This document shows, piece after piece, positions 3,686-43,958 of a stretch of 64,000 bases of DNA; positions within the stretch are counted from its first letter, which is position 1; every line of letters starts with the position of its first letter. A program made the translations under genes and the position numbers. The notes beneath the pieces are model-generated. The model searched no databases. It was not told the DNA's origin and saw only the letters and a program-made list of their open reading frames with translations. Origin of the DNA: an uncultured Anaerolineaceae bacterium (GTDB lineage Bacteria > Chloroflexota > Anaerolineae > Anaerolineales > UBA11579); contig CAYJMC010000003.1 of the NCBI GenBank assembly GCA_964371335.1, positions 41,962-105,961 on the forward strand, read 5' to 3'.

Positions 3686-6355
3686 TTATCCCTTTGTAAA
3701 TTTCCTCTTCCATTCCCACAATTTATTCAGCGCTTCAATTGGCGAGAGGCCTTCGATATCCAGCCCCTTCAGTTCGTCCACCAGCGGGCTGCTCTCGGGG
3801 AACAAGGCCGCTTGCTTGGCGGCCAGGCCGCCGGTATCCGCATTTCGTCCCGAGCTCGCTTCCAACTCCTTCAAGATCTCCTGCGCTCGCTGCAGCACCG
3901 GCCGCGGCAGCCCGGCCAACTGGCCCACGTGAATGCCATACGAACGATCTGCCCCGCCGGGGATGATCTTGTGCAGGAAAACAACATTGCCAGCGGCTTC
4001 GCTGACTGCGACGTTGTAATTGCGCACACCGGGCAGTTGCACGGCCAATTGAGTCAACTCGTGATAATGCGTGGCGAACAGCGTGCGGGCGCGCAACTTG
4101 GGATGGTTATGGATGTATTCGACAACCGCCCAGGCGATGGAAAGCCCGTCATAAGTGCTGGTGCCGCGTCCGATCTCGTCGAGGATCAACAGGCTGCGCG
4201 GCGTGGCATGGTGCAGAATGTTAGCGGTTTCCACCATTTCCACCATAAACGTGGACTGCCCAGCATGGATTTCATCTTGGGCGCCGATGCGGGTGAAGAT
4301 ACGGTCCACCAGGCCGATGCGTGCGCTGGCGGCGGGCACGAAGCCGCCCATCTGCGCCATCAGCACGATTAGCGCCACCTGGCGTAAATAGGTGGATTTG
4401 CCGCTCATGTTCGGCCCGGTGATCAGGCGGACACATTCGCCTGATTCGAATTGAGTGTCGTTGGGCACGAAGCGCGCCTGCCCGGGCAGCAACCGCTCCA
4501 CCACAGGGTGGCGCCCCTCACGTATATCGAGTACGGTGCCATCTTCGAGTTCCGGGCGCGTGTAGCCATTGAGCGCTGCCACTTCTGCGAGCGAGGCCAG
4601 CACATCCAGCATCGCCAGGGCACGTGCAGAGGCCAGCATGGTCGCGGCAGTTTTCGCCAACTCGGCGCAAACCTGCTTGAACAAGCGCGTTTCCACTTCA
4701 AGGATTCGCTCCTCGGCGTTCAACACTTGCGCCTCAACTTCTTTCATCTCGGGCGTGATATAGCGTTCGGCGTTCACCAAAGTTTGCTTGCGAATGTAAT
4801 CTGAGGGCAGGCCAGCATCTTTGGCTTTGGTCACCTCGATGTAATAGCCGTGCACCTTATTGAAGCCCACCTTCAATGTCTTGATGCCCGTGCGCGCCCG
4901 TTCGGCCGTTTCGAGATTGGCAATCCACTGGCGCGCTTGTTTCGTGGATTCCAACACTTCGTCGAGCTCGCTCGAATACCCATTTCGAACGATCCCAATG
5001 TGACCCAGTACCGCGGGCGGGTCATCGGCGATGGCGGTTTGCAGCAGCTTCAATTCTCCCGAGCAAGGAGATAAGCCGGCGATGAGATTCTGGAGTCGAG
5101 GCTTTAGCCGGTTTTCTCGAGCACCGGCTAAAGGCGGGATTGCTTCGTCGACCTTCGGCCTCCTCGCAACTGCGGAAAGCAAGCTTTCCTTGGCCTCGAC
5201 TCCGTTTAGAAGAGCGATCACCGCCGGAATGGCTTCCAGCGTTTCTCGGATCGCCACCAAATCGCGCGGCTGGGCGCTGCCGCCCAATACCCGGTTGGCC
5301 AGCCGCTCCAGATCGCCCAGCGGCTTGAGGGCGGCGCGCAGCTCGGCGCGCCGCAGACCATCTGCGTGGAAAAAGGTCACGCCGTCCTGGCGCTGGCGGA
5401 TTTTGCCCAATTCCAACAGCGGCTTGCTTACCCATTGGCGCAGCATGCGCCGCCCCATCGGCGTCACGCAAAGTTCCAGCACATGCAACAGCGACCCTTG
5501 TACTCCACCGCGCAACGTTTCGGTGAGCTCCAGGTTGCGCCGCGCTTCGCCGTCTAATGTCATAAACTCGGCAAGACTGTATGAGTGCAAACTGGTTAAC
5601 AAGTTTAAAGTTGAAGGTTGGGTTTCCTGCAGATACTGCAGCAGCGCGCCCGCCGCCTGCATGGCGAGCGGTTTGTCTGTCAACCCATAAGCCTTCAGGC
5701 TGGAGGTTTTGAAATGCGCCAGGAGAGCTTCTCTGCAGCGGCCGGGCTCGAAGCGCCAGGCCGTCCACGCAGTGGCATGGCCTGGTAGATTCTCGAACCC
5801 TGGTGTTTTGTCAGGATGAAGGATTTCTGCCGGCGCCAGTCGCTGGATTTCTGCGCGCAAGGCTGCAGCGTTTTCCAATTCGGCGGCGGCAAACTCGCCG
5901 GTGGTCACGTCGGCGTAAGCCAAACCGGCTTTGGCATCCTCCAGCACCACCGCGGCTAGATAATTGTTGGCATCGCCAGGCAGCAGGCCGGGTTCGACCA
6001 CAGTGCCGGGAGTGACAATGCGCACCACCTCACGGGGCATCAGGCCCTTCACTGGCTCCTCAGCCACCTGCTCGCAGATGGCCACATGGTGGCCGCGTTC
6101 GATCAACTTAGCAAGGTAATTTTCCGCCGCGTGGAAGGGAACTCCAGCCATCGGCACCCGAACGCCCTTGGCCACGTTGCGCGAAGTGAGCACAATGTCC
6201 AGTTCGCCGGCCACTAGCTCGGCATCGGCATCGAAAGTCTCGTAGAAATCGCCTAAGCGAAAGAACAAAATCGCCTGCGGGTATTGGCGCTTGATGTCCA
6301 GATATTGCTGGCGAACGGGACTGATCCGATCATCGATGGCGGTGTCAGAGGCCAT
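3686..6355 (-). CDS. mutS: DNA mismatch repair protein MutS
   Basis: N-terminal mismatch-binding region (FFRLGDFYETF), Walker A GPNMSGKST, and conserved DEIGRGTSTYDG and ATHYHEL segments. At 889 aa it includes the repeat-derived insert at 5092-5203. Confidence 0.97.
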   Translation of the reverse strand: MASDTAIDDRISPVRQQYLDIKRQYPQAILFFRLGDFYETFDADAELVAGELDIVLTSRNVAKGVRVPMAGVPFHAAENYLAKLIERGHHVAICEQVAEEPVKGLMPREVVRIVTPGTVVEPGLLPGDANNYLAAVVLEDAKAGLAYADVTTGEFAAAELENAAALRAEIQRLAPAEILHPDKTPGFENLPGHATAWTAWRFEPGRCREALLAHFKTSSLKAYGLTDKPLAMQAAGALLQYLQETQPSTLNLLTSLHSYSLAEFMTLDGEARRNLELTETLRGGVQGSLLHVLELCVTPMGRRMLRQWVSKPLLELGKIRQRQDGVTFFHADGLRRAELRAALKPLGDLERLANRVLGGSAQPRDLVAIRETLEAIPAVIALLNGVEAKESLLSAVARRPKVDEAIPPLAGARENRLKPRLQNLIAGLSPCSGELKLLQTAIADDPPAVLGHIGIVRNGYSSELDEVLESTKQARQWIANLETAERARTGIKTLKVGFNKVHGYYIEVTKAKDAGLPSDYIRKQTLVNAERYITPEMKEVEAQVLNAEERILEVETRLFKQVCAELAKTAATMLASARALAMLDVLASLAEVAALNGYTRPELEDGTVLDIREGRHPVVERLLPGQARFVPNDTQFESGECVRLITGPNMSGKSTYLRQVALIVLMAQMGGFVPAASARIGLVDRIFTRIGAQDEIHAGQSTFMVEMVETANILHHATPRSLLILDEIGRGTSTYDGLSIAWAVVEYIHNHPKLRARTLFATHYHELTQLAVQLPGVRNYNVAVSEAAGNVVFLHKIIPGGADRSYGIHVGQLAGLPRPVLQRAQEILKELEASSGRNADTGGLAAKQAALFPESSPLVDELKGLDIEGLSPIEALNKLWEWKRKFTKG
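5092..5203. repeat. Family A monomer embedded in frame inside mutS
   Basis: Terminal inverted repeats ggagtcgaggc / gcctcgactcc, an internal hairpin tagccgg/ccggcta, and the core gattgcttcgtcg-N-tcctcgcaactgcggaaagcaagctt. It aligns along its whole length with the intergenic copy at 17649-17765. Confidence 0.7.
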
Positions 6356-6539
6356 GAAAGAATTCTAACAGTACGGATTAGAAAAATAGCTCCGTGGCTT
6401 GACGATGCACTGGCGCCAAGCTAGCATCTAGCAAGTTTTTAGGGGTGCCTTTGTCCCCTTTCGCCTGTTACGCCGATTAATCTTATGTCAAGCTAAAAGC
6501 GCCGTTTCCACTGGTGCTTTGTCGAAAGGAGACTCGGAC

Positions 6540-8687
6540 ATGTCACGCAAGTTCTCAGTTCCAGGTTCGGTTATACCGGCGATCGCTACCCTCGCCATTC
6601 TGCTGCTCGGTTGCCAACCCGGACTCTCAGGTGTTATGACCTCGACCGACCCGTCAGCAACCCAACCCCAGAACAGCGCCCCTGTGGAAGCCGCTACGCC
6701 GTCCGCGAACAGCTATAGCTGGCGCGGAACTACGCTCACCCTGGAAGTTGCTCTGCCCAAGGAGCCCGGCGAAGCCGGCGTTTACCTCGGCCATCCGGAT
6801 ACGCCGACCACCATCGAAGATGCTCGCGCCCTGGCAGACCGATTCGGCATGCAGGGTCATGTGTACTCCAGCGGCAGCGTATATTCCAGCGGCGCAGGGT
6901 TTCTGGTGGTAGATGGAAACCGGCGGCTTTCGGTGCAGTCCGACTACCAATTCATCTACTATCCAAGCCACTTCAATTACTCGATTTCTGATACCGCGAA
7001 TCAAAGCCCGGAAAATGCCGAGGCCTTAATTTCCGAGTTTATGCAGGAATACGGCTTCGATATGGACTATATAGTGTCGTATTCTGAGCTGCATAATGCT
7101 TATTTCGCGCTCCCGCTCTCGCCAGATGGATCCCCCTTGCGATTTCCTCATTTCGCCGCATCCGGCTTCCAGTTCAGCTTCGACAAGGAGGGCATTGTTT
7201 CCGTTTACGCCATTTTGCTCCAATACGAGCCGATTGGGACCTTTGGGATTATTTCGGCGGATGAAGCTTTTCAAAAATTGCTGGCTCCTGATCCCAAATA
7301 CGGGTCGCTGGAAGGAGGCATCAGTCCTTCGGGGTCCCCACAGGCATGGGTCCGTAAATATCCACTCGACGAAACAATCACACTTTACGGTTGGATGAAC
7401 TCTATACCTTCCGCCGAGGGCGGAGAACGGCTGATAAGTCTGGACAGCTACATCGTTACCGGCAACACCACCGGCATCGACTCGAACATGTCCGATACCT
7501 ATGTTGAAGCCACCGGGCGCTTCAACACCGAAGCCGGCACGGATTACTTCGTTCTTGATTCTTGGCGCGCTCATGCTTCCCAAGAAGGCTGGCTGGGAAC
7601 TTTGCAGCGACAAGGCGATGATGTCGTTCTAGTCACCAGTGAGCATGGAACATTGCTAATGCCGGACGTCCCCGCGGATGTCCCGCTGCCATTGGAGGAT
7701 GTATACGCATTGGGAGTGACGGTCGGAAACACGTTTGAATGGAATTTCTTCGATCTTCGCATGGTCGACGGAGGTGGAGGTGGTGGCGGTGGAGGTCTGG
7801 GCTTTTACGATGTGAATCTGAGCGGCACGCCCCAGCCTCTACCAACTCTGGCAAGTCAACAGCAATTGCAGCCAAAGGTCGGCGAGCATTTAGATGGCTT
7901 GCGTGGTTTCGTGAACGTGACTCTATTCAACCAGCCAGATGGCAGCCAGCGCGCCGAATATTATTTGTTCTATGTGCCCGAGGGCCAGCCGTTTTCTACA
8001 ATGATCATGTTGCAAGGCGAGGGCTTGGAAGTGCTGCAAGCAAACCACAACCGGCCGGTCGACATGTGGGGAACGGTAACTGGATTCAACGAGCAATTGG
8101 GGATGGCCGTTGTCGACGTCGATCGCTTCGCGGTCCCCTTCCCAGACCTGCAGTTCCAGGTCCTGCGGGGAACCCAGCAAACCCTCCAAGTTGACGGGCA
8201 ACCTGGGATTTTGTTCATCACCACGGAAGGGCAGAGCTATTTGCAGCTGATGCCCGGAGGCGGATTGGATGGCATGCTGATCGGAAATGAAGGCGACGAA
8301 GTCTTATTGGAAGCGCTGATCGTCCCCGATGAGACATTCGCTGGATATGCGACCGTGCACGATTTTTCCGCGTCAATGGCCGTCAACCCAAAGAATGGAC
8401 AAGCCATGAATTTGCAGATCACCGCCGACCAGCCCTACGTAACGGACGCACCCCAGCCGCAGGTTCAGGAGACGGTTGAAGTTCCTACGGCTGTAATCGA
8501 CAATGTGGAATTGGTTCATCTGATCCCCTACCCGAGTTACGCGTTACCAGACAGCGATTTCTACATCCAGCCTATGTGGCATTTCACCGGGCACTATAGC
8601 CAGGGGGATGTCTTTGAGGTCTTCGTGCAGGCTCTCAGGCCCGAATTTCTCAGCCCAGAAATCGTGACCGTAGAGCCGCCAGGGTAA
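6540..8687 (+). CDS. secreted lipoprotein of unknown function with poly-Gly linker
   Basis: Track ORF 6519-8687. AAGGAG lies 8 nt before ATG 6540. Signal peptide with lipobox LLLGC. Nine consecutive Gly residues are encoded at 7770-7796. I recognised no family. Confidence 0.7.
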   Translation: MSRKFSVPGSVIPAIATLAILLLGCQPGLSGVMTSTDPSATQPQNSAPVEAATPSANSYSWRGTTLTLEVALPKEPGEAGVYLGHPDTPTTIEDARALADRFGMQGHVYSSGSVYSSGAGFLVVDGNRRLSVQSDYQFIYYPSHFNYSISDTANQSPENAEALISEFMQEYGFDMDYIVSYSELHNAYFALPLSPDGSPLRFPHFAASGFQFSFDKEGIVSVYAILLQYEPIGTFGIISADEAFQKLLAPDPKYGSLEGGISPSGSPQAWVRKYPLDETITLYGWMNSIPSAEGGERLISLDSYIVTGNTTGIDSNMSDTYVEATGRFNTEAGTDYFVLDSWRAHASQEGWLGTLQRQGDDVVLVTSEHGTLLMPDVPADVPLPLEDVYALGVTVGNTFEWNFFDLRMVDGGGGGGGGGLGFYDVNLSGTPQPLPTLASQQQLQPKVGEHLDGLRGFVNVTLFNQPDGSQRAEYYLFYVPEGQPFSTMIMLQGEGLEVLQANHNRPVDMWGTVTGFNEQLGMAVVDVDRFAVPFPDLQFQVLRGTQQTLQVDGQPGILFITTEGQSYLQLMPGGGLDGMLIGNEGDEVLLEALIVPDETFAGYATVHDFSASMAVNPKNGQAMNLQITADQPYVTDAPQPQVQETVEVPTAVIDNVELVHLIPYPSYALPDSDFYIQPMWHFTGHYSQGDVFEVFVQALRPEFLSPEIVTVEPPG

Positions 8688-14920: not shown

Positions 14921-15030
14921 GCCTTTGCGAGGGCGTGAAACGCCAGAAGCAATCCCCAACACGGCCCGGCAAATCAACTTGGGGATTGCTTCGTCGGCCT
15001 CATTTCATTCGGCCATCCTCGCAAAAACGG
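14921..15030. repeat. Family A palindromic (dimeric) element
   Basis: Outer inverted repeat tttgcgagg (14924-14932) / cctcgcaaa (15017-15025). Inner inverted repeat gaagcaatcccca / tggggattgcttc. It is homologous to 296-402. Confidence 0.8.
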
Positions 15031-16327: not shown

Positions 16328-16388
16328 AAAAACAAAAATGACCGGCTAAGCCTCGACTCCAAGAAGCAACCACGTAGAAAGAGGAACC

Positions 16389-17648: not shown

Positions 17649-17765
17649 GGAGTCGAGGTTTTAGCTGGAAAGGGAAACTGGCTTAAGAATTGATTGCTTC
17701 GTCGCCTCGCTAGCGCTCATCTCCTCGCAAATGCGGAAAAGCAAGCTTCACCTTGGCTTCGACTC
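17649..17765. repeat. Family A monomer (intergenic reference copy)
   Basis: ggagtcgaggttttagctgg...attgcttcgtcg...tcctcgcaaatgcggaaaagcaagcttcaccttggcttcgactc. It is collinear with the copy inside mutS. Confidence 0.75.
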
Positions 17766-19477: not shown

Positions 19478-19711
19478 TAACGGAGCGAACTCCTCGCTTC
19501 CGGCAGACGTGAATTCGGTATAGGCAGCATAGGGATTTCTCGTCGGGCAGCAATGCTAAAGGCGTTGCTTCGCTTCGCTCGCAATAACGGGAGGGGCCTT
19601 AGACCCTCCCCTACAAATAATAATCTGCTGGTTTTGAATCAGTGTTCATCAGTGTTCATCTGTGGTTTAGAAATCGACCATTGCGTATAATCTATCGACC
19701 ACGGAGCACTA

Positions 19712-42639: not shown

Positions 42640-43833
42640 TTATATCTCGGCGGGTTCCAGGTCCTCGAGAATTTCGGCGGGGGCAAGCTCAGCGTCTTCT
42701 TCGCCGGCGAACATGGCGGGCTGCGCGGTCAGCACCTTTTCGCGGATCTGGCTTTCGATGGCCTCCGCCAGATCGGGGTGGTCGCGCAAATATTCCTTGG
42801 CGGATTCGCGTCCCTGGCCCAGGCGCTCGTCCCCGTAGTTGTAGAAGGAACCGCGCTTGACCACCAGTTCGTACAGCACGGCGAGATCCAGCAGGTCGCC
42901 GCTCTTGGAAATGCCTTCGTTGTACATGATATCGAACTCGGCAGTCTGGAATGGCGGCGCCACTTTGTTCTTCACCACGCGCACTCGCGTGCGGTTGCCG
43001 ACTACGTCTTGCCCGGTCTTGATGGATTGAATGCGGCGCACGTCCAGGCGCACGGAGGAATAAAACTTGAGCGCCATGCCGCCGGTTGTCGTCTCCGGGT
43101 TGCCGAACATGACGCCGATCTTCTGGCGCAACTGGTTGGTGAAGACCACCGCGGTGTTGGTTTGCTTGATGGCGCCGGAGAGTTTGCGCAGTGCCTGCGA
43201 CATCAGGCGGGCCTGCATGCCCATGGTGGCATCTCCCATGTCGCCTTCAATCTCGGAGCGGGGCACCAGCGCCGCCACCGAGTCGACCACCACCAGGTCC
43301 ACCGCGCCGGAGCGCACCAGCGCCTCGGCGATCTCCAAGGCTTGCTCGCCGGTGTCGGGCTGGGCGATGAGCAGGGTGTCCAAGTTCACGCCGCAGCGCG
43401 AGGCGTAGGTGGGATCGAGGGCGTGCTCCATGTCGATGAAGGCGGCGGTGCCGCCGCGCTTCTGCACTTCGGCCACCAGGTGCTGGCAGAGGGTGGTCTT
43501 GCCGGAGGATTCGGGGCCGTAGATCTCGGTCACCCGCCCGCGGGGAAGGCCGCCGACGCCCAGCGCCAGGTCCAGCGAAATGGAGCCGGTGGAGATGGCC
43601 TCCACGGCCATGCCTTTGGCTTCGCCCAGGCGCATGATGGCACCTTCGCCGTAGCGCTTCATGATGTCGTCCAGGGTGCGCTGCAGGGTCTTGAGGCGCG
43701 CATCTTGTTCAGGGTTATGCCCATTGGAGGAGGTTGCTTCGTCGGCTGAATGCCTCCTCGCAACTGCGGGAAGCGTAGCTTCCCTTGTCTCCGGGGCGAC
43801 TTTGAGATCGGTTATTTTGACTTTTTTCGCCAT
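42640..43833 (-). CDS. recA: recombinase RecA with repeat-derived N-terminal extension
   Basis: Walker [10 protein letters not shown], plus [21 protein letters not shown] and [20 protein letters not shown] 43833 has GGAGA 9 nt upstream, and there is no alternative in-frame start before residue 58. Confidence 0.97.
43732..43793. repeat. Family A core copy inside the recA coding region (N-terminal extension)
   Basis: ggttgcttcgtcggctgaatgcctcctcgcaactgcgggaagcgtagcttcccttgtctccgg. It has the same core and the same orientation as the mutS and 17649 copies. Confidence 0.6.
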
Positions 43834-43856
43834 TGGTCTATCTCCTATGCCATGCT

Positions 43857-43944
43857 GGGAATTGCTTCGTCGTGGTTGCTACGCAACGCATCCCTCGCAA
43901 CTACAGAAGGCAAGATTGCCACGCAACTCGGCCCTCCTTGCCTC
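43857..43944. repeat. Family A-like copy in the recA 5' untranslated region
   Basis: gggaattgcttcgtcgtggttgctacgcaacgcatccctcgcaactacagaaggcaagattgcc... Confidence 0.55.
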
Positions 43945-43958
43945 CGAACTAGTGTTCT
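43945..43958 (-). promoter_or_regulatory. Cheo-type LexA (SOS) box upstream of recA
   Basis: cGAACtagtGTTCt is a perfect GAAC-N4-GTTC palindrome, located just downstream of the predicted recA -10 box. Confidence 0.6.

Follow-up and report, generated by a model that had tools for sequence, protein, structure and literature searches.

The window analysed here is a 64-kb stretch of DNA from an uncultured Anaerolineales bacterium (phylum Chloroflexota), and it raises the question of how a 112-nt segment with inverted terminal repeats (positions 5092-5203) could come to lie inside mutS (3686-6355, minus strand) and be translated there without breaking the open reading frame (ORF). We consider it likely that the segment consists of two nested non-autonomous repeats, lodged in a permissive linker of MutS and carried there as a translated passenger. 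The outer unit would be a hairpin of the REPIN type, that is, a pair of inverted repetitive extragenic palindromic (REP) units, and would belong to a Chloroflexota-wide REP family whose partners are REP-associated tyrosine transposases (RAYTs; HUH/Y1 type). By analogy with REP/RAYT and IS200/IS605 systems, such a family would be mobilised as single-stranded hairpin DNA without target duplication, presumably by the RAYT. Within one REPIN arm there would then sit an independent 60-nt repeat of two stem-loops that has been amplified in this lineage. Of the three frames through the arms two are open, the inner unit measures exactly 60 nt, and the loss of about 16 nt of linker offsets the hairpin's length of 3n+1; together these let the ORF survive. 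The resulting MutS would be longer by about 31 residues that are predicted to be disordered and lie in a length-variable loop of domain III.

The host gene encodes a protein of 889 aa that matches all five Pfam MutS domains (bacterial MutS1 domains I-V) and the Escherichia coli MutS structures (E = 2e-200). The structure match falls into two blocks, query residues 9-388 and 436-881 against E. coli MutS 8-387 and 405-848, and this split leaves about 30 extra query residues at 388/436. The motifs GDFYE, GPNMSGKS, DEIGRGT and THYHEL are present, and the Phe-X-Glu, Walker A, Walker B and THYHEL motifs are intact. The 112-nt element begins exactly at codon 385 and covers residues 385-421 plus the first base of codon 422; it is translated as GVEAKESLLSAVARRPKVDEAIPPLAGARENRLKPRL, and peptides such as LLNGVEAK and LKPRLQNLIAGL run across its junctions.

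The ends of the element are perfect 11-bp inverted repeats (GGAGTCGAGGC and GCCTCGACTCC), and its RNA, taken from the mutS sense strand, has a folding energy of -55.6 kcal/mol (z = -5.2; 0 of 200 shuffles as good). It resembles an intergenic segment at 17649-17765, with a blastn E value of 1.6e-9 in the 64-kb window for a 45-nt core and with termini that match collinearly. The core motif TCCTCGCAANTGCGGAAA has 3 matches against 0.00 expected, while the 11-mer terminus alone, with up to one mismatch, is at chance level (4 matches against 1.38 expected; 8 of 100 shuffles reach 4). A search of the whole window against Rfam 15 at the gathering score gave 0 matches, and a tRNA and tmRNA scan gave none. 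A sequence-only reading of this DNA had described a segment with these termini and an internal hairpin, related to 17649-17765 and translated in frame within an intact mutS between conserved core-domain helices. All three points are borne out: the sequence is as described, the nucleotide similarity is significant, and the structure match and the AlphaFold model (below) place the segment between those helices.

We aligned the 60 best MutS homologues, scanned the 120 closest orthologues (67-94% identity) for the insert motif and compared the DNA of six mutS loci. The insert is missing from 116 of the 120, and the four carriers are the window itself (P0001), P0002, P0005 and P0008. They form a graded series. 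The site is empty, with an 8-aa linker such as PPERNSLA or PKQKSPIS, in orthologues P0003, P0004 and P0006, which are about 90% identical over shared columns, and in more than 100 others. P0005 (86% identity to the window) has only VEA-LAGDRETRLKPR and P0008 (83%) only VEA-LAGKEDDRLKPR; the window (100%) has the complete 37-aa insert, and P0002 (93-94%) has the complete insert with 13 more residues in its middle. At the DNA level P0005 and P0008 carry a perfect 52-nt hairpin, to which the window adds 60 nt between CCGGCTAAAG and CCTCGACTCC. In P0002 (L001:11189-11239, GCA_023485685.1) a third repeat of 39 nt lies inside the inner 60 nt and accounts for the 13 aa; it contains a GCCGCC-TTT-GGCGGC hairpin and has relatives at L129:902-942 and L125:5474-5506.

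The segment is thus an insertion of dispersed repeat DNA and not ancestral MutS sequence, and, as the sequence-only reading had expected of an alignment, no homologous ancestral peptide stands at the site in the 116 orthologues without the insert. An ancestral or lineage-specific expansion of the linker, with only an incidental likeness to the intergenic element, would suit a site that is a natural hotspot of MutS length variation: five other orthologues have unrelated inserts of 8-15 aa at residues 386-388, in the domain III linker. Against such an expansion are more than 100 orthologues without the insert and nucleotide-level identity to a repeat family present in at least 118 contigs. A chimera that repeats had created during assembly is opposed by the same window-type insertion in the independently assembled metagenome-assembled genome (MAG) GCA_023485685.1, at 89% nucleotide identity over the gene, and by the hairpin-only form in two further independent assemblies. 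We regard expansion and chimera alike as scarcely credible. A metagenome scan for mutS carriers added one contig only (L129, of the P0005 type, with an identical hairpin).

The 52-nt hairpin and the 112-nt composite both have lengths of 3n+1, the latter being 37 codons plus 1 nt. Together with 5 flanking nt the element makes up 39 codons, which stand in for the 8-codon linker, so the net gain is 31 aa and not 38; where the hairpin is present alone, about 16 nt of native linker have been lost. No target-site duplication was found at the three mutS hairpin junctions, nor in the flanks of family copies. The sequence-only reading had counted about 38 added residues and expected a clean indel. Measured against the nearest empty orthologues about 31 aa were gained, and the boundaries are not clean, given a length of 3n+1, the missing native linker codons and the lack of a target-site duplication. 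An AlphaFold model from a 110-sequence alignment, judged by its predicted local distance difference test (pLDDT) and secondary structure, has a mean pLDDT of 70. Residues 386-415 fall below 50 and are flanked by confident helices at 363-384 and 419-441; of the two forms that the sequence-only reading had asked about, loop or helix, the model suggests a flexible loop that is predicted to be disordered. Between the two composite carriers, the window and P0002, the ratio of nonsynonymous to synonymous substitution rates (dN/dS) is 0.065 at a synonymous divergence (dS) of 0.47. Strong purifying selection has thus acted on the gene from the time of the insertion, which argues that the insert-bearing MutS probably remains functional. 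The suggestion that the insert may modulate MutS finds no sign here, with the catalytic motifs intact and dN/dS this low.

The mutS locus is interrupted or lengthened in other ways elsewhere. In alleles L130, L131 and L133 the native linker is tandemly duplicated (LRSPISSLRPPIS) at the insert site, so the linker tolerates a change of length. Two Chloroflexota MutS homologues of about 1290 aa (P0088 and P0100) carry inteins, recognised by their Pfam intein and LAGLIDADG domains (PF14890, PF14528), which are another way of interrupting the same gene.

Comparison with the hairpin-only alleles resolves the anatomy of the element. The outer hairpin, 52 nt long, consists of two 20-nt arms (GGAGTCGAGGCTTTAGCCGG and CCGGCTAAAGCCTCGACTCC) around a 12-nt loop. 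The first arm is intact at 5092-5111, and its 20-mer is the one present in at least 118 Chloroflexota contigs and also found beside RAYT genes. It is followed by the loop (TTTTCTCGAGCA, 5112-5123), a part that has diverged between carrier lineages where the arms have not. The second arm is split into a first half at 5124-5133 and a second half at 5194-5203, and between them lies the 60-nt inner repeat (5134-5193, plus strand), which reads GGGATTGCTTCGTCG, stem-loop, CCTCCTCGCAACTGC, stem-loop, CCTTGG and is absent from the hairpin-only mutS alleles L002 and L003. In the second composite copy, at 17649-17765 between convergent genes for a major facilitator superfamily (MFS) transporter and a DUF218 protein, the inner repeat occupies the same position in the hairpin arm. 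Either the composite spreads as one unit, or that position in the REPIN arm is a preferred target. Unrelated short inserts also occur in the second arm, a few nt from the inner-repeat position, at L030:5204-5300, L109:3223-3330 and L088:7768-7850, and this part of the arm may be an insertion hotspot.

The outer hairpin belongs to a large family. A scan for the arm 20-mer, with Y (C or T) allowed at two positions, covered 185,579 species-representative genomes and found it in at least 118 contigs. Among the matches listed are Anaerolineae, Caldilineae, Chloroflexia (Oscillochloris), Ardenticatenaceae and Dehalococcoidales MAGs, and a single one from outside the phylum, on a contig of a MAG labelled Roseobacter. 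In 88 complete copies from other genomes conserved arms enclose spacers of 2-75 nt, and there are solo arms and tandem arrays as well; the 64-kb window has two full copies and one fragment. Many copies (for example in L007, L008, L015, L016 and L024) have a variant second arm, CCGCCTRAAGGCTCGACTCC. The variant breaks two base pairs between the arms and keeps a 3-bp mini-palindrome within the arm (GCC-TGAA-GGC), and there appear to be two types of REP half-site.

Most copies are intergenic, and in-frame insertion is a minority behaviour of the family: 73 of the 88 complete hairpins have no spanning ORF of 150 aa or more, and 15 have one. Pfam confirms in-frame inserts between domains in a GT4 glycosyltransferase (L038) and a shikimate dehydrogenase (L059). 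Six of ten candidate long ORFs across hairpins have no Pfam domain and are probably spurious ORFs of GC-rich DNA, and the hairpin of L009 is found upstream of the true start.

The partner of the family emerged when the 148 ORFs closest to hairpins were surveyed for Pfam domains. Two of them encode Y1_Tnp proteins (L018:2262-2798 and L067:441-971), which are 67% identical to each other, share an HUH motif (HYHLLLK) and a YIHxNPV motif, and score 101 and 116 bits against the NCBIfam model of the REP-associated tyrosine transposase (NF047646; cut-off 80). Family arms abut the L018 gene at both ends; the L067 gene has a hairpin cluster just upstream and no arm on its other side. A homology search returned 929 relatives at E <=1e-10, some of them named REP-associated tyrosine transposase [Anaerolineae]. 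At four more independent loci (L207, L208, L209/L210 and L211/L213), where the RAYTs were called by 61-67% identity to the L018 and L067 proteins together with Pfam Y1_Tnp, arms with 0-3 mismatches stand on both sides, the nearest about 45 nt or less from the RAYT start and stop. By comparison, a search of 250 kb from unrelated Chloroflexota loci that allowed up to 4 mismatches gave 0 arms. At its foot the mutS arm, like most copies, has GGA-GTCG-AGGC, and copies beside RAYTs often have GTGG or GTAG in this place; the tag is thus akin to the canonical GTAG (or CGTC) of REPs without being identical to it. Because family arms flank RAYT genes at six independent loci, the hairpin is a REP/REPIN-type element with the architecture of a REPtron.

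The sequence-only reading had taken the segment for a single MITE, a miniature transposable element with inverted repeats. The allele comparison, the recA copy described below and free copies of the inner unit show instead a REPIN-type hairpin with an independent 60-nt repeat in one arm. The perfect 11-bp terminal inverted repeats, the small size and the several dispersed copies would agree with a classical MITE, which derives by deletion from an insertion sequence of the DDE type, moves by cut-and-paste and has terminal inverted repeats and a target-site duplication. Such a MITE is nevertheless highly improbable, since the terminal repeats are just the outer part of 20-nt arms that pair along their full length, copies differ in spacer length from 2 to 75 nt, no junction has a target-site duplication, and the 112-nt unit is made of two separate repeats. 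The only transposase genes found flanked by arms are Y1/HUH RAYTs. In the Pfam census no DDE family is among the 25 of 134 families listed, where Y1_Tnp is the sole transposase family; an IS66-type gene next to the RAYT in L207 does not have the arms as its termini.

The inner unit is a separate mobile repeat family. Its core consists of TTGCTTCG, a variable short stem-loop and CTCGCAA, and the window has 8-9 copies of this core against 0.01-0.08 expected. In 1.17 Mb of retrieved loci, nearly all from other Chloroflexota, there are only 9, and the close relative L001 accounts for 4 of these; the core has thus been amplified in this lineage. The full unit is about 60-65 nt long, with a second stem-loop and the ending CCTTGG. 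Hairpin-free copies occur in L001 and L005, and both stems have compensatory differences between copies.

One such copy lies in a second repair gene. The recA gene of the window (ORF 42640-43833, minus strand; Pfam RecA domain from residue 48) contains the 60-nt repeat in frame in its N-terminal extension (43729-43788, minus strand). Eight orthologues at 81-89% identity (P0122-P0126, P0128, P0129) share the extension MARKVKLTEIKVAPE..SNGHNP and lack 18-20 of its residues, and against the recA DNA of L125 exactly 60 nt stand in place of 9 nt. The repeat is read in the same frame in RecA and MutS (..AVARR..DEA..). The recA 5' leader holds a further insert of 91 nt with the core repeat (43848-43938, minus strand), between a GAAC-N4-GTTC box (43946-43957), which we take to resemble an SOS or Cheo box, and the ribosome-binding site. 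This insert is missing from the orthologous leader in L125 and has GGCA on both sides, possibly by chance; from its place in the leader it could affect recA expression.

Several observations weigh against a translated passenger that was inserted once and inherited vertically. The arms of the mutS hairpin are identical at 39-40 of 40 positions among the window, P0005 and P0008, lineages in which third-codon positions over the whole gene are only 56-59% identical and dS exceeds 1. A neutral passenger from one old insertion should have decayed, and the arms have not. Nor do the carriers form one clade when the insert is left out of the MutS tree: the sister of P0008 is P0012, an empty allele (89% aa identity, dS 0.73), and that of P0001/P0002 is a clade in which the alleles are empty. 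The mutS flanks follow the whole-gene tree right up to the hairpin junctions, so one insertion followed by vertical descent does not fit. As to the transposase, a tblastn search with RAYT found none in the 64-kb window, so that mobilisation by a RAYT in this organism is drawn from other genomes, and the mutS arm has GTCG where classical REPs carry a GTAG tag.

The frozen arms are a reason to consider that the hairpin is a selected cis-element of mutS, with its arm sequence kept by purifying selection. Its stem in mRNA or single-stranded DNA could set MutS expression through ribosome pausing or cleavage of double-stranded RNA, or it could be a site of RAYT binding or processing. Not one of the 13 third-codon positions in the arms has changed (P ~1e-3 per pair); the loops retain only 3-6 of 12 positions between carriers (Fisher p = 6e-6 to 3e-4 across the lineages with dS above 1, and 6e-7 to 1e-3 for five between-lineage pairs). 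The RNA hairpins of alleles L002 and L003 are very stable, at -38 and -42 kcal/mol (z = -7.9 and -11.3), and inside the shared element the window and L001 differ at 4 positions, all of them synonymous. The three mutS hairpins also share the right junction (14 nt before the GLS codons), the reading frame and a 12-nt loop, a length found in only 4 of 88 family members. These shared features point to a common origin of the three, and the loop and junction favour long retention after it. Three facts speak against selection at this site: most close orthologues do without the hairpin, its carriers are not monophyletic, and the arm is also conserved in hundreds of intergenic copies across the phylum. 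Given this conservation, the identity of the arms could reflect the dynamics of the family, such as recent independent insertion from conserved master copies or conversion between copies. We hold a selected cis-element to be unlikely and prefer the nested repeats carried as a passenger.

Other accounts of the patchy distribution were tried. Short-patch recombination is not borne out, as the 60 codons on each side, with the element columns excluded, follow the whole-gene relationships and P0008 is closest to the empty P0012; a grouping of carriers in sliding windows arose because the right arm of the hairpin was aligned against native linker. The linker of P0012 as the remnant of a deleted hairpin is unconvincing, with a match of 5 nt only (AGGCT). 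Empty alleles are ancestral and not deletion products, because their linker motif K/Q-S-P-I/V is common with outgroups. Two readings are left: either the site was hit repeatedly by conserved master copies, as a targeted hotspot, or an old insert spread or was retained with its arms held by selection or conversion. It is conceivable, if doubtful, that the REPIN in mutS is no decaying passenger at all, its arms being under selection or the same linker nucleotide having been hit independently in three lineages, and that, taken with the recA copies, it points to a real mechanism connecting REP-type elements with the machinery of repair and recombination. Selected arms would mean that an RNA or DNA hairpin sets MutS output or that a repair gene contains a RAYT recognition site, and independent hits would mean a sequence- or structure-specific target inside mutS. 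The passages on intragenic REPs in one survey report a bias towards repair genes, left unexplained there (PMC3733652).

Among known systems the closest are the REP/REPIN elements with RAYTs of E. coli and Pseudomonas, reportedly treated by Nunvar 2010, Bertels and Rainey 2011 and Ton-Hoang 2012. REP/REPIN-RAYT systems are also described in PMC3733652 and PMC6006769. The Chloroflexota family shares with them the inverted pairs of units with a variable spacer that form a hairpin, the many dispersed and mostly intergenic copies, solo units and clusters, the lack of a target duplication, and RAYT genes (NF047646 above cut-off) flanked by the repeats. Unlike classical REPs, it has an arm consensus of GTCG (GTGG or GTAG beside RAYTs) and not strictly GTAG, and the internal palindrome of each 20-nt arm is only 3 bp long (GGC-TTTA-GCC). 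The 20-mer is conserved over several classes, whereas REPs are usually species- or genus-specific, and the flanked RAYTs come from other Chloroflexota, none being in the 64-kb window.

In-frame insertion of such elements has precedents. According to the passages on intragenic REPs in Di Nocera et al. 2013 (PMC3733652), REP units or dimers in frame add 20-30 aa to known proteins, and many intragenic REPs are located in replication and repair genes, among them uvrA, uvrB, recB, dnaE2, polA and other repair genes, for which mutator effects are speculated upon. In the same passages the survey covers mainly Proteobacteria, Opitutus and Rickettsia, and notes GTAG repeats of Chloroflexi with no intragenic case there and no sequence that matches the present family. 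The text of PMC3733652 does not contain mutS; recA occurs in it twice, outside the passages on REP-bearing genes that were consulted. The present case differs from those of Di Nocera et al. in the nesting of up to three repeats and in the graded series of orthologues.

Rickettsia palindromic elements (RPEs; Ogata et al. 2000, 2002), which the sequence-only reading had thought the only well-known parallel, are one of several, next to the REPs in repair genes just cited and other MITEs (PMC10969869). As the sections on them in PMC10969869 have it, RPEs are palindromic, about 100-150 bp long with a conserved peptide, and nearly half are intragenic, in frame in housekeeping genes and translated at places that the fold tolerates. 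The mutS insert is likewise a translated palindromic repeat in a tolerated place of a housekeeping gene. Unlike RPEs, only a few per cent of the Chloroflexota copies are intragenic and a transposase partner is identified, and the host sets the family apart from RPE-1 to RPE-10, being Anaerolineales and not Rickettsia, with the matches listed in Chloroflexota apart from the one Roseobacter-labelled contig; no relationship in sequence to RPEs is apparent. Bacterial MITEs known in frame are ERIC, the Coxiella QMITE1, Anabaena MITEs and Nezha (PMC10969869, PMC5896051, PMC3184786). They resemble the present element as small non-autonomous repeats that can create translational fusions, and differ from it in being DDE-derived, with terminal inverted repeats and a target-site duplication; neither duplication nor DDE parent was found here. 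A literature text search for the arm and core sequences returned chance primer matches only, and these repeats occur in no paper of the library searched.

In-frame REPs in repair genes are therefore already known, and the mutS case belongs to that kind. What is new is a Chloroflexota REPIN-RAYT family, apparently undescribed, together with the nesting series, the parallel insert in recA and the frozen arms. Through uncultured genomes a REP/REPIN family is here tied to its RAYT across a whole phylum. The steps from empty linker to hairpin, and then to a second and a third repeat, form an unusually clear record of nested selfish repeats lengthening a protein loop, and mutS and recA join the repair genes with translated REP-type inserts, a list that has prompted the speculative idea of tuned mutation and recombination rates. 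Frozen arms in a coding region offer a test case for whether REPINs are kept up by selection, by conversion or by re-insertion. For annotation a caution follows, as the extra 30-40 aa of these MutS and RecA proteins are derived from repeats.

Some further copies and variants of these repeats deserve mention. In the window a solo REPIN arm fragment (CCGGCTAAGCCTCGACTCC) lies in the intergenic region downstream of a methylguanine methyltransferase gene (16341-16360), inverted pairs of the inner core repeat are intergenic at 304-393 and 14925-15024, and a minimal core repeat, TTGCTTCGCTTCGCTCGCAA, is at 19565-19584. Strings of this last kind (..GATTGCTTCG..CTCGCAATGAC..) presumably recur in many bacterial phyla, where we take them to give rise to spurious hypothetical peptides. 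Elsewhere in the family, L048:2702-2915 and L076:5894-6085 (MAG USDE_maxbin.019) repeat one REPIN arm head to tail, six times at a period of 34 nt and four times at 38 nt respectively; as these arrays have no unique spacers they are not CRISPR-like. In Chloroflexia (Oscillochloris and other MAGs) the hairpin is set within a longer conserved unit, TTGGGGTTGTTGCGT, hairpin, TTTTCATAACCTGTGTAGGATTGCTATA (L007, L019, L021, L042, L098, L112-L114, L119 and L120), which suggests a putative composite element specific to that clade. Just upstream of one REPIN-flanked RAYT, with several REPINs between, a reverse-transcriptase gene (RVT_1) and a bAvd-like gene (L209:1-857) look like a diversity-generating retroelement.

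Next to mutS in the window, an ORF of 722 aa (6519-8687) encodes a run of eight glycines (DGGGGGGGGLGF), and its orthologues (L001:7687-9816 and L003:7734-9878) are without Pfam annotation.

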